Part shown: positions 48,001-54,000 of the stretch, piece after piece
Layout of the letters: every line of letters starts with the position of its first letter
Numbering within the stretch: position 1 is the stretch's first letter
DNA from: a virus
IMG/VR virus record: IMGVR_UViG_3300026233_000021
DNA: 64,000 bases
Strand: one strand, 5' to 3'
Position numbers: made by a program

Positions 48001-51000
48001 AAGGGCATGGTGAAGGTGTCAGCCTCTTCCCCATCCTTGGAATCGCCCTTGACCATGATCTTGTACAGGCAGCCGGAGAACAGGCGCCATTCGGGATCAC
48101 GCAAGCACCGCTCCAGCTCCTCGGGCGTGTCGGGGAGCCGGTTCAGGGGAGCACTGTGGACGCGCGCGGCCACAGCCTCAATCCTCCTCGTCCGCCGGGT
48201 CTTGCTTCACCTGCAGCGTGGAGCCCGCGCGGGGGCCTGTGCGCTCCGGGTCATCTGCAATGGGCGCGAAGCCGTTGCCGTTCTCCTTGGAGATGCGATG
48301 CAGCAGCGCGGCCAGCGGGTCTGACTTCTGCTGGTTGTCCCTCTCGTACATGCCCAGGTACTTCCAGATTTTTTCTGCGAAGGCCTCCTTGCTGTGCGTC
48401 AGGACCTGCAGGCCATCTTTCGTACGCTTCACGCCGGCATACAACTGGGCAGCGGCTGGGCTCAGGTAGCGGGTGTCCTTGATGACCTCGCGTGCATATC
48501 CATCCCCAACGCATGCAGTGCAGTCCGGGTGCGGCGGCCGGTGGGGGTTGAAACCGATGCCGCCTTCTTCATCGAAATCCTCGGGCGCCTTGCCTTCAGC
48601 ACGCCATGACTCGCGTGCCTGGTTCATCTCGCTGACGGTGCGCTGGTAGCGGAAGTTCTCCCCCCAGCAATGGCGGCAGCATGCGACCTTGGTCTCGATC
48701 AGTTCGCGTGCATCGGCTGTAGCGATCAGCCAAGCCTGCTGCAGCATGGCGTCGGCAGTGATCTGCGTGCGCTCCTGCTGCTGCTTTCGGGCTTCCGCAA
48801 TCGCGACTTGGATGTGAGGTTTTGACAGGTTCTCAGAGGCGATCTGCCGGGCAGTCTTGGAGCTGTAGCCGGCTCGAATCGCCGCCTGGGTTCCATTCAG
48901 GTCCACCAGGAATTCATCGATGAACTTCGACTCCCTCGCGGTCAGCGCCTGGGCATCCGTGCTCTTGATGCGGGCGGCCTTTTTTGCCGGGGCCTTCTTC
49001 AATGCGGGTTTCGCGGTCGCGCTCGTAGGCTTCTTGGCCGCTGGGCGCTTCGCAGGAACGGCAGAGCCTGCGGCCTTCTTGGGGGCAGCAGGCTTCTTGG
49101 GGAGAGGTTTCTTTGGAGGCTCGGACTTGCCGGCAGGACGTTGGGCCATGGCCGGAAGTGTTCCGGCATGGCCTAGGGCCGTCGAACCCTAGCCGGGGCG
49201 CTCCGCGCGACGCGCCACATTGCGCAACAGTTGCGCATAGAATTCCGGCATGACAGCCAAACCACCCACCGCCCACACGGCCGAAGAAATCACGGAATGG
49301 ATGCAGCGCAATGGCCTCACGCAGACCGCTGCAGCCGAGGCCCTGGGTATCTCACGCCGCATGCTGCTGTACTACCTGACCGGCGAGAAGCCCGTGCCCC
49401 GCACCGTGGCCCTGGCCTGCCTGGGCTGGGAAGTGGAGCGCACAAACGCGGCTTGAGTGGCTTCTGAAAAAAGGCGTTGACTGCGCAATCATTGCGCATT
49501 ATTATTCTTCCCATGGCAGCAACAAGCGGCCACTGGCCCGGCAGATCCGGGAAGTCTCGGCCGCACAGGTCGAACGCACCAAAGGGGAAAAACCATGTCC
49601 TACCTCATCAGCAACGGCCAGATCGTCGCCAAGACCTCCGCCACCCTGGCCAGCGGCCAAAGCGTTGCATTCAGCGGCACCCGCGTGGCCGAGGAAATCA
49701 ATGCCGGGCGCCAGTGGAACCTGGTCAACGCGCAACGCGCCACCATCGGCAACGGCAAGACCTGGGATGCAAAGTGGGCCAAGCTGGAAGATGGCCGCAT
49801 GGCCAGCGAGATCAACCCCGGCGAATTCTTCATTGCCTGACTGCTATAGTGGTGCCGTCCAGATAGGCGCCGACTGCCGAGCAGGCAGCTTAGGAAATAC
49901 CGCAGTGATGGTGCTCCATCAGCGGGCTCCGCTCTCTCCACTACCGAACAGGTAGCTTCTCTGCCGCATAGGCAGCACCACCGGAGATTGATGATGCAAA
50001 CCGAAGACCGGGAATTTGATGCCGAGGTGCGCGCCTTCGTTGCCTCGTTCGGCTGCGTGCAGCGCGCCCGCTATGGCCGCTGGTTGGCCTGGCTGGACCC
50101 AACGCACGACTTTGTGCGCGAGGGCCTGCAGCCGCCTGGGCAGGTCAACGTCTACCTGCACGGCGAACCCAAATGCACCGCCCAAAACAGCTACTGGGAC
50201 GGCCAACCGCCCATAGGCTTTGCACGGGGCAAGCCCCTCTTTGGCGGGCCGCTGGACTTGCGGAAATCCGCCGACCGGGAGCTATGGCGCCAGGCGTGGG
50301 CCGCGCGCCCGTATTTCGAGAGCGCGGAATCGGCGCGCCGCAAGATCGAAGACTGGATCTGGGACAACCGCCCCGACATCGTGCGTACGGCAAGGAATGA
50401 GGTGCGCGAGGCGATTGCCTACCGCCGCCGCATGAGCTGGAAAGCCCGGGAGCCGGCCCATGCCTGAGTGGCGCATCTACCAGGGAAACACCCTGTATTG
50501 CCAAACCGATTGGGCGCCCATGGCCGTGGCGGCCTGGGACCGGGCCGCCCGCGACACCAACACCGAGGATGAGCGCACCGAGGTGGTATTGGAGAGGGAC
50601 GGCCAGCTGCTGGAGCGTGTACGGCCGCGCCGTGCAGGACACCCTTGGCCCGACAGTCGCACCACAGTGCCAGGGCTGGGGGACCTGGCGGCGGCCATCC
50701 TGCAACTGGCACGCGCTGCAGGCATCGACGCCACCGCGCTGGCCGATGAGATGACACGCAACGGCCTACCCACCGCACGCAGCCGCCTGGACCGCATCCG
50801 CACCATCTCGCGCGACAACAGCGCGCATACATCAAGCGCCGAGCTGATGGCCATGTGCTATGCAGCCGTGGGAATTTTGCGCAAAAACGAAAAAGGGGGT
50901 TGACTGCGCAATGATTGCGCAATAGTATTGAACCCATGGCAGCACACCGCCGCCAGCGGCGCCTCCCGTCAATGAGGGGCAAGTGAGAACCACAATGAGC

Positions 51001-54000
51001 GCAATTTCCTATATCTGGGCCGCAGAGCAAACCGAGCCGGGCATGAGCGGCGTGCAATACGCTGCAACCAATACACCTGCCGCACCCAGCGGGCTGCAGG
51101 CTGTGCCCGTTGCGGGTGCCGAGGGCCTGGTGCATCAGGAAAGCCTTTACGGCGACTGGAAGCTGATAGGCACCGCCAAGGGAGCCAGCTACAGCAACGA
51201 TTACGGCTACTTTGTTGAGCTGGACACTCCCATGATGCAGGGCGCCCCCGTGGAACTCGAAGAGGTGGTGCGCTGCGGCTGGTACAGCCAGGCATGACAC
51301 AGCGCGCCAAGCTGGTGGTGCACCACGGTGGCCCCTGGCGCCACTATCAATGGACCGAGCTGCCGGGCTGGGAAATGCTGGGCACAGTGCAGCGCGGCCA
51401 CGAAATCGGCGCGCTGGCGCGCAACCTGCGCACCGGCCAGTTGGTCATGCTCAGGGCCGGGGCGGCCAGCGCCCTGGACCAGCGCAAGGTGCTGGCCGCC
51501 TTGCAGACTGCGCGGGCCGTTTGACTCGAAAAAGCCCGCGCGCATCTGGCTTTTTCTTGACCCTACGCTGCAGCTTGGCCCGACAGCGCACTGAGCAGAT
51601 CACCCTGACGTCCGTCAACACGCCGCTGAGCTTTTAGCGCTTTCACTTCGCGCTCCAGGTCTCTACGTCTGGCCACCTCCTCCAGCAGTTGGTCCTGCAA
51701 CTCCGTGACGCGCGTCAGGGCCGTGTGCTCCAGCGCCACGCCTGCCAGTCCCTGACCGAGGCGCGCGGCTTCGGGGCGGACCAGATGCAACACATGCTCC
51801 CCAATCTCCACCAAGGTCCGCCCATCGTTGAGGTGAACGATGACGACATCCCGCGCTGGCCCATGCTGGTGCACCGGGCGGTAACACTGCTTCACCGCCG
51901 CAATCATTCCCTCGCCGCGCAGCACCTTGATGCGGTCGTCCACCGTGGTGAGGTTCAGGCCTGTCATCTTGTGGATGCGGTCGCGCGTGGGCTCTTCACC
52001 GGCCTCGTGCAGCTGGCGGATTGCCTCATAGACCTGCGTCAGCGTGGGCACGGCCTCGACCGCGCCAGTGTCCGGATTGCCGCCGGGCGTCTTGTGGATG
52101 GTGCTGGTGGTGGCTTGGTTCATGCGGTTTCACTCCAGAGGGGCAGACGTTGTGGCCATTGGCCGGATTCAAGAATCGTGTGGCGGGTGATGCGGCCCCA
52201 TTCCAGGCCGTATGCGCGGTGCTGTTCGCGGCCGCCTTCTATGAGGCGGTATTGGTCATAAGGGATGTGGCAACCTTCAATGCCTGGGCGAGCGCAGCAC
52301 AGCGGGAAGCCTGTGCGGTCATCTGTCTTCAGGCCCATGCCCTTTCCGAGGTTCAGGTGCGCGTGCTGGCTGTAGCCGACCACGTTGCACCAGATGCAGG
52401 GCAGCGCAGCCACGGCGCGGCGGTAGGCCTCACATTCGAGGATTTCAGTCTTGGGCACGACCAGGCCTGTGCTGGCTCCGCCCATTACCACGATGCTGGT
52501 GCACGCCATGCCGGCCGTGGCGCGGGCACTATCCATGGCGCGGGCCGCGCGCTGCGCCAGGCGCTCTTCGCGGTCCAGATTGCCGGTGCCTGCCACAGGC
52601 CATGGACTCTTGGACTTGAACGGCCTGCGTGTCAGCGCCATGGATGCGCCTCCCGCCAAGCATCCAGACGGTTCATTACCTCCCACGGGAAGGTGTCGAA
52701 GACGCCGCCGGTGGGCAACGCAGGGCGGACAGGGCAACGCTGATACAGGATGCTTGCCCCGTTCAACGCTGCCCGCGTCAGCGCGGCCTCGCCCTCTGGA
52801 TTGGGGTCAGCCATCAGCGCATCCACCAAAGGCCGCCACGAAGGGTGAAGGATGAAGCTGGGCCTGCTGGTCGGGCGGTCGATCAGTTCTCGGGCCATTT
52901 CGGAGACGAGCATTACCCTCATCGGACATCCCCTTCAACATCGACCTGCACCAGGAAGCCGTGGTCGCCCATCACGCATACACGCGTGGGGCCGTACTGC
53001 TCCAGGCGGCAGCAGCGGTTTTCCGACCAGACGGAGAAGCGGTAGCGTCCCAGGGCATCAGGGCCTTCGATGCGCTCGCGCATTGCGGCGCCACGCCACA
53101 GGGGCGGGTGCAGGCGCGGCGCGCACGGGGCCGCGCTGGCCACGGCGCGGAAGGTCGGGGCGGAAATCAAGCATGTGCACCGCCCTCCCCTGCGCTGGCA
53201 TCGAAGTCCTGCACCTCCAGACCCAGCACGCGCGCCACAAAGCTCTCCAACCGGGCGCCGCGCGACTGCTTCCAGCCCGGCAGCCGGTGGACGGCATCGC
53301 AGGTGCACAGCTGCGGCAGCGCCAGACGCATGTAGCCAGCCCAGCTGCCGCACGCTGGCGCGGGGTTCTCGGCCGGGTTCTCGACGTGGTGGCCCTGGGC
53401 GCGCAGCGTGGCTGCAGCGCGGTTGAAGGCCGGGTAGTTGAACTCGGGCAGGCCTGTCATCGGGCCAGCGATGTAGATCCGCTTCATGGCCGGGCCCTCC
53501 GGAAGGACCACGCGATCATTGCGGCGTCACGCTGGTGCTGATTGCTGCGGCCGGCCCAGCCGGTCAGGCGGCTGAAGGTGGCGGCATCGATCTTGGCGCC
53601 GTGGGCACTGCCGGCCTTCGCGCTTGGCGCCAGGCCGAAGCAGGCAATGCCGAGGCTGGCGCACAGGGTCTCGATCAGCACGCACCATGCGTCGATCTCG
53701 CCCACGTTGCGCGCCATCTTCGCTCGCGCCGCGGCACTGCCCTGGCCGGTCCAGGTCTTCCGGGCCTTGCGGCTGTCCTCGAAGATCACCAGCGTGGGCG
53801 CCCTGCCCTGCAGCGTCTGCAGGATCTGCGCTGGCGCAATCTCCTCCAGCGCCTGCAGCTGGCCATCCACGATCCAGGCCAGGCCCGTGTGCTTGCCCGG
53901 ATCCATGCCCAGCACCGTGATCGGGCCTTGGTGGCCAGCCGGCACCGTCACGCACGGGGCGGCGGGCGCCAGGCGAGCGCCTGCAGCTGCTGCACCACCT

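Follow-up and report, generated by a model that had tools for sequence, protein, structure and literature searches.

A second operator-controlled operon in a phage anti-CRISPR island joins an exchangeable candidate inhibitor gene to a conserved and possibly regulatory gene

The 64-kb viral sequence IMGVR_UViG_3300026233_000021 of IMG/VR (the window, i.e. the whole stretch of DNA that was analysed) contains an island of plus-strand genes with two operons, and the second of these (operon 2) is the subject of this analysis. Operon 2 is read as a genuine second transcription unit, in which a 100-amino-acid (aa) acidic protein (family A2) would be inhibitor cargo and a 76-aa basic protein (family A1) would be a regulatory gene in the slot of an anti-CRISPR-associated (aca) gene; the probability of this reading as a whole was put at about 0.5. 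A first-pass annotation of the same DNA had taken both genes for new inhibitors of CRISPR or of another defence system. From this proposal the 100-aa gene is kept as a candidate, whereas the 76-aa gene is revised to a conserved module of the aca slot. Operon 2 consists of the following features.

50900-50928, plus strand: operon-2 promoter from a promoter scan (-35 TTGACT, 17-nt spacer, -10 TAGTAT; 9/12 matches)
50905-50921, no strand assigned: operator copy 3, between the -35 and -10 hexamers of the operon-2 promoter
50937-50955, plus strand: leader hairpin P1, which folds directly 3' of the predicted transcription start
50961-50980, plus strand: leader hairpin P2 (GCCUC-loop-GGGGC), nearly invariant in sequence between loci
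50995-51297, plus strand: 100-aa acidic protein, family A2; cargo gene in the anti-CRISPR (acr) slot and anti-defence candidate
51294-51524, plus strand: 76-aa basic protein, family A1; conserved gene in the aca slot
51528-51556, no strand assigned: terminator-like hairpin between the 76-aa gene and the convergent minus-strand gene of a 186-aa protein

Both genes are coding and under purifying selection, with ratios of non-synonymous to synonymous substitution rates (dN/dS) against their homologues of 0.15-0.29 (100-aa gene) and 0.21-0.48 (76-aa gene). Homologues fix the start of the 100-aa gene at the ATG at 50995 and not at the GTG at 50983. The two genes overlap by ATGA and are translationally coupled, and the isoelectric points (pI) of their products are 4.1 and 11.6, respectively, which confirms the acidic protein and the coupled partner described earlier. 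The closing terminator is the weakest of the features described: a hairpin is present (9-bp stem, A-run and T-run arms, 11-nt loop, -10.4 kcal/mol), but it is weak (z = -0.9) and was not called by a consensus terminator scan. Contigs from RNA libraries of four studies were considered as evidence of transcription and rejected, since they cover both genes but also the flanks, at a depth of 2-7.

The control of operon 2 was analysed together with the remaining operators, the regulator gene and the first operon of the island (operon 1).

49221-49237, no strand assigned: operator copy 1 (TGCGCAA-N3-TTGCGCA), an exact motif match just 5' of the helix-turn-helix (HTH) gene
49250-49456, plus strand: gene of a 68-aa Aca-type HTH regulator (Pfam HTH_31, E 4.5e-7, and HTH_3), the presumed repressor
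49477-49505, plus strand: operon-1 promoter TTGACT-17-TATTAT from the promoter scan, enclosing operator copy 2 (49482-49498)
49595-49840, plus strand: 81-aa gene of the AcrIF8 family (Pfam PF25699, AcrF8), the first gene of operon 1

The operator motif occurs exactly three times in the window (49221, 49482 and 50905) against 0.03 expected copies, and a count of three was reached in 0/100 shuffles. Copies 2 and 3 each lie between a -35 and a -10 hexamer and copy 1 precedes the HTH gene; with the operon-1 copy, copy 3 forms the inverted repeat I3 at 100% complementarity. Only two promoter-like sites were found in 49100-51700, namely those of operon 1 and operon 2 (shuffle mean 0.4). Promoter, operator and leader start are spanned by a 72-nt direct repeat (49466-49537 versus 50889-50960, 79% identity), so that the copy of all three elements claimed for operon 2 is borne out. 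An additional palindromic half-site, TTGCGCAA, is located at 50877-50884, about 15 nt 5' of the operon-2 -35 hexamer, and has no counterpart in operon 1.

The 81-aa protein matches AcrF8 with an E-value of 7.2e-16 and 58.5 bits (cut-off 27). Judged by its gene content, the locus is a real anti-CRISPR island, because operon 1 begins with this AcrF8 homologue. The properties of acr-aca loci, i.e. a recurring operator at the regulator gene, a small HTH gene and a validated Acr family in the regulon, were all found here; the AcrF8 homologue, the Aca-type HTH and the three identical operators support the Aca-controlled setting that the first-pass annotation had assumed. Searched against PDB, the HTH protein hits the C-terminal HTH of NE0471 with an E-value of 3e-17, and a single-sequence comparison with Aca1 gives a weak match (E about 1e-3 over 42 residues). 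HTH genes of the same family were found in the collected loci L010, L012-14, L016 and L067.

A1 was read as the aca-slot gene and A2 as the inhibitor candidate mainly because the position after A2 is interchangeable among A1, HTH and ribbon-helix-helix (RHH) genes. A2 is rare (20 homologue clusters). It is followed by A1 in the window, in L004 and in several viral contigs, which amounts to about ten loci besides L067 and L069. In L067, an Acidovorax P2-like prophage whose island is bordered by tail-fibre and sheath genes, the promoter carries an operator and the leader has P1 and P2; A2 comes next, then a 69-aa Aca-like HTH gene 30 nt downstream and nothing else. Going by gene order, this is a classical acr-aca pair. 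In L069, the coupled partner of A2 is a 63-aa RHH-like gene, and in L068 A2 stands alone. The first-pass annotation had made its proposal depend on homologues lying near acr or aca genes, and A2 homologues do adjoin the Aca-like HTH gene of L067 and the RHH-like gene of L069. This setting makes A2 a good candidate for an inhibitor of host defence, which is its most likely role; a first guess for its target would be type I-F CRISPR-Cas.

Distant members of both families form a pair (hhalign probability 98.9%) in a region of L001-L003 that resembles an integrative and conjugative element (ICE). There, the pair (L001:5465-6990, L002:815-2340) follows SRAP (PF02586) and DnaE-type polymerase genes, with ParA, ParB and RadC nearby. 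This ICE-like region has no P2 leader. The pair thus travels together outside phage acr islands.

Family A1 is much larger, with 130 clusters at 90% identity; when 1.8 billion representatives were searched with a profile, 400 clusters at 50% were found at an E-value of 1e-3 or better. Starting from A1, ten genome loci were found (in Comamonas, Eoetvoesiella, Delftia, Paracidovorax, Acidovorax, Giesbergeria, Xenophilus and a Rhodocyclales metagenome-assembled genome), and in each of them A1 is located directly 3' of a small gene which differs between loci, usually with an ATGA overlap. Taken over all collected loci, 38 operons with leader and A1 contain 44 upstream genes in 22 BLAST clusters, and the commonest of these families is A2 (10). 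None of the cargo proteins upstream of A1 has a Pfam family. Many of them, A2 among them, are acidic (pI 4.0-4.8), and others are neutral or basic. The members of A1 are basic throughout (median pI 10.8), and the family has Arg, Lys, Trp and Tyr positions that do not vary. A1 thus resembles the aca class as a conserved gene 3' of variable cargo; it does not share the HTH or RHH domain of that class, as the 76-aa protein itself lacks both by Pfam and its model is a beta-meander with one helix.

Relatives of A1 are joined to DNA-binding domains. In L027, a protein combines an A1-like domain with an Aca-like HTH at its C-terminus, Pfam HTH_31 follows the A1 domain in P0202, A1 is combined with an Aca-like HTH in P0197, and a C-terminal RHH-like motif was detected in at least 18 of the 146 A1 representative clusters. 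In the phage contig L061, a promoter with an operator and a leader of the P2 type precede an operon of two genes, one for ParB_N-like cargo and one for a fusion of A1 with RHH; this fusion is the only candidate for a regulator there. In L016, A1 and an Aca-like HTH are separate but coupled genes, and an HTH gene of the same family adjoins the A1 operon in L010 and L012-14. A1 would be a regulatory partner in the aca slot and not cargo, because 22 unrelated families precede it, it is basic, it occurs in the slot of HTH and RHH genes and it is fused to DNA-binding domains. The odds for this regulatory reading of A1 are about even, because fusions to DNA-binding domains are equally expected of a self-regulating inhibitor.

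In many loci, the 3' end of A1 is overlapped by a conserved gene (L008:5224-5748, L011:5212-5664, L012:5212-5706, L002:1861-2340) whose N-terminus reads ..ELIAGPY..W.DDEIDG..EVGGWT...; the L014 copy has a GcrA-like/phrog_323 regulator part. Family searches with this gene were uninformative, and the window lacks it.

P1 and P2 fold in 19/19 related leaders. The stem sequence of P1 varies between loci and its pairing is kept in all 19. P2 is composed of a CCUC/GAGG core, flanking G-C pairs and a conserved loop, and in most loci the ribosome-binding site contributes its first Gs to the outer C-G pairs of P2. Compensatory variants are ACCUC/GGGGU in L015b and L061 and one extra C-G pair in L012-14; RNAalifold on a MAFFT alignment recovered only P2, with zero double-sided changes. 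P2 stays constant while the operators between -35 and -10 differ among loci. The leader matched no Rfam family. Within the window, the leader of operon 1 shares the P1 part only. A leader peptide in P2 was considered and rejected, since the AUG inside P2 opens frames which are inconsistent in length and phase between loci.

P2 is present in 10/10 loci found through A1. Conversely, a gene of the A1 family lies at most 2.5 kb downstream in 15/15 viral contigs retrieved with the exact P2 pattern, and likewise in 18 of the 23 metagenome matches of P2 in promoter context. A strict dependence of A1 and P2 was rejected, since loci with P2 and without A1 exist; P2 is accordingly a hallmark of the operon class and not a strict partner of A1. 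The operons with P2 and without A1 end in an Aca-like HTH gene (L037, L042), a PAPS-reductase/ParB-like pair (L044) or a HigA-like gene (L060). In L044 (reverse strand, P2 motif at oriented position 593), the same type of promoter and P2 leader precedes two small genes, followed by the PAPS-reductase-like (399 aa) and the ParB-like gene. This operon fits the Aca-regulated PAPS reductases mentioned in PMC13551039.

The metagenome contig L051 contains a CRISPR array (11561-12795) with about 17 copies of a 36-nt repeat ending in ATTGAAAC. One of its spacers matches the conserved P2 leader sequence, which indicates that hosts acquire spacers against the leader and do target these elements.

The favoured mechanism is as follows. 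A strong promoter of the sigma-70 type would drive operon 2, overlapped by the same operator that serves the HTH gene and the AcrIF8 operon. To judge from this architecture, all three units are presumably expressed in an early burst and then repressed by the 68-aa HTH protein. The transcript of operon 2 would start with P1 at its 5' end, followed by P2. A2 would be exchangeable cargo and most likely inhibit a host defence system, and A1 would most likely be regulatory, i.e. a nucleic-acid-binding or regulator-associated module which occurs as a protein of its own in the window and as part of fusions with RHH or HTH domains in relatives. One concrete possibility is that A1 binds the RNA of the P2 leader. 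A more specific version is put forward only tentatively, and is judged rather less probable than the reading as a whole: A1 might be a new regulator module without HTH or RHH that takes the aca slot in hundreds of operons on mobile elements, acts on P2 and controls the translation of the cargo. In that case, an exchangeable anti-defence cassette would be bounded by two constant elements, the leader and A1.

Several observations weigh against the reading of operon 2 as inhibitor cargo with a regulatory partner; they are given here together with the results of the family and structure searches. Concerning the regulator, a profile of seven members of the HTH family did not reach Aca1 at an E-value of 0.01. 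The only known Acr of the window lies in operon 1 and not in operon 2, and 0/22 cargo families upstream of A1 match a known Acr family. Neither the 100-aa nor the 76-aa protein has a match in Pfam (which holds Acr models such as AcrF8), PHROGs or PDB sequences, as the first-pass annotation had stated for known Acrs, and neither is homologous to a described Acr or anti-defence family in these databases or in fold libraries. Structure searches (Foldseek against PDB and BFVD, VIA-align wide, AFDB clusters and ESM Atlas) yielded nothing informative for A1 or A2. The A2 model was computed from six sequences and has a mean predicted local distance difference test (pLDDT) of 73, and its best PDB fold match (Z 3.2) is in the noise range. 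The A1 model is a five-strand beta-meander with a C-terminal helix (pLDDT 89) without a recognisable DNA- or RNA-binding fold; its best PDB fold match, PipX, has a Z of 4.4 and is also in the noise range, significant matches in PDB or BFVD are absent and the AFDB matches are uncharacterised relatives only. Among five hosts of A1 loci, the I-F protein Csy3 was found in two and Cas1 was missing in two. At least five loci have P2 without A1 (L036/L042, L037, L044, L055, L060), and the distant pair of L001-L003 has no leader. Finally, a domain fused to an Aca-type DNA-binding domain is also what the self-regulating inhibitors AcrIF24 and AcrIIA1 look like. A co-fold of the island HTH protein with the 76-aa protein scored 0.00, which is evidence neither way.

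The fusions of A1 to DNA-binding domains lend weight to the best surviving alternative, according to which both genes encode inhibitors. A1 would be a widespread anchor protein of anti-defence, sometimes fused to its own regulator, and the variable genes upstream of it would be further inhibitors. A1 is found in an operator-controlled operon beside the AcrIF8 operon, its modelled fold appears to be small and novel as in many Acrs, and its HTH and RHH fusions are like known Acr-Aca fusions. Furthermore, the distant A2-A1 pair persists without leader or HTH, which suggests a role beyond regulation through this leader. However, A1 was never found in first position and never as a lone cargo gene, it is very basic against mostly acidic cargo, it takes the slot of HTH and RHH genes in the sister operons of A2, and it is present in hosts with as well as without CRISPR-Cas. 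On balance, this explanation is considered doubtful.

Less probable still, and on the whole unlikely, is a toxin-antitoxin-like or accessory module for addiction, superinfection exclusion or host takeover, without any role in counter-defence. A coupled pair of an acidic and a basic protein behind a promoter of the autoregulated type would fit such a module, relatives adjoin hicAB (L004) and brnA-like genes (L020, L024, L030), the fusion of an A1 domain to RHH or HTH recalls antitoxins of the HicB type, and the island HTH protein matches NE0471 in its C-terminal HTH. However, a specific neutralising pair is hard to reconcile with a single conserved partner for 22 unrelated upstream families, sometimes with two upstream genes, and A2 occurs without A1 in L067, L068 and L069. 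Neither protein matches a toxin or antitoxin family in Pfam or PDB, and the neighbouring operon 1 is anti-CRISPR.

That both open reading frames (ORFs) are chance frames and the repeat is a functionless simple duplication is refuted by conservation: the GC-rich window is indeed full of overlapping spurious ORFs, but dN/dS is 0.15-0.48 over many homologues, 20 (A2) and 400 (A1) homologue clusters exist, gene order and coupling are kept in dozens of loci and the A1 model is confident (pLDDT 89).

The island as a whole (49221-51556) is flanked on both sides by minus-strand phage genes.

46563-49149, minus strand: terminase large and small subunits, on one flank of the island
51563-52737, minus strand: phrog_8117 protein and DUF968/HNH-like protein, on the other flank

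Operon 1 is completed by genes for a 159-aa and a 147-aa protein (49988-50903), i.e. further cargo behind operator copy 2, which have no Pfam or PHROG family at useful E-values. In the 147-nt gap 3' of the AcrIF8-like gene, two weak matches to the Rfam family CRISPR-DR4 (a type I-F-like repeat) were found at 49869-49980, with 26 bits (E 0.009) and 19 bits, both under the gathering score. These sites may be solitary repeats, i.e. hairpins like those of RNA anti-CRISPRs, within operon 1. A provirus record is 96% identical across the whole island. Homologues occur in Delftia and other Comamonadaceae, and the host of the window prophage is probably Delftia. A related island lies in Delftia sp. PS-11 (L010:3003-7006, compared with window 48178-52123) between homologues of the 186-aa protein and the small terminase subunit; it is codirectional with these flanking genes in L010 and inverted in the window.

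If the 100-aa protein is a true inhibitor, it represents a new family from phages of Comamonadaceae. Hosts of this family carry type I-F and other CRISPR-Cas systems, and to our knowledge few CRISPR inhibitors have come from it. The larger lead is the combination of A1 and the P2 leader, which marks at least 38 operons with 22 unrelated and unannotated families of small cargo proteins. It offers a practical search handle for counter-defence genes in mobile elements of Burkholderiales and may point to a new regulatory partner of Aca-type repressors.

Operon 2 and its relatives were compared with four kinds of known systems. Antitoxins of the HicB type and NE0471 (PDB 2auw) have a similar layout, i.e. 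an N-terminal domain with a C-terminal HTH or RHH, 3' of a small coupled gene. The A1 model matches neither fold in the searches run, however, and the upstream partners of A1 are diverse, mostly acidic and not HicA-like. Type II toxin-antitoxin systems differ from operon 2 in the variable partners of A1, the occurrence of A2 without A1 and the missing match to a toxin-antitoxin family.

AcrIIA1 and AcrIF24 are self-regulating Acr-Aca fusion proteins. In these, a small domain that does not bind DNA is joined to a regulator domain of the HTH type, as in the A1-HTH and A1-RHH relatives. A1 has no sequence or fold similarity to them, and the A1 of the window is free-standing, with the HTH as a separate gene 1.8 kb upstream.

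The acrIF8-aca2 operon of Pectobacterium phage ZF40 is under dual DNA and RNA control by Aca2, as summarised in PMC13551039. Like the island, it has a promoter under repressor control in front of a gene of the AcrIF8 family, and a hairpin of the leader lies near the ribosome-binding site. In contrast, the regulator of the window is not Aca2, and the AcrIF8 of the window lies in operon 1 and not in operon 2.

The closest systems are the acr-aca loci of the same study (Feussner et al., NAR 2026; PMC13551039). It describes Aca proteins as repressors of neighbouring operons with anti-defence candidates, and most Aca families are predicted to control such operons rich in unannotated candidates. Aca1 and Aca2 also bind hairpins in the 5' untranslated region (5'-UTR). 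In acr-aca1 leaders, among them a small cluster from Burkholderiaceae, the RNA hairpin bound by Aca1 lies just 3' of the transcription start; the Aca-bound 5'-UTR motif is a covarying hairpin located between the transcription start and about 20 nt before the start codon. The RHH protein Aca14 can stand in for an HTH (PMC13551039), and candidate I-F acr loci in Delftia were noted earlier (PMC6739104). A second Aca-controlled operon with small unannotated genes is thus of a known and published kind (PMC13551039). In the main text of that study, neither the A1 family nor A1 fusions were found, nor a P2 whose sequence is conserved across differing operators. The island shares with the published loci one small DNA-binding regulator with identical inverted-repeat operators over several adjacent promoters, a known acr in one operon with unannotated small genes in another, and 5'-UTR hairpins between transcription start and start codon. 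It differs from them, as they are presented there, in that its HTH is weakly Aca1-like and stands alone upstream of two cargo operons rather than at the end of an operon, in that operon 2 ends in the conserved gene A1, which is neither HTH nor RHH, and in that its leader has two hairpins, of which P2 is conserved in sequence across loci with differing operators.

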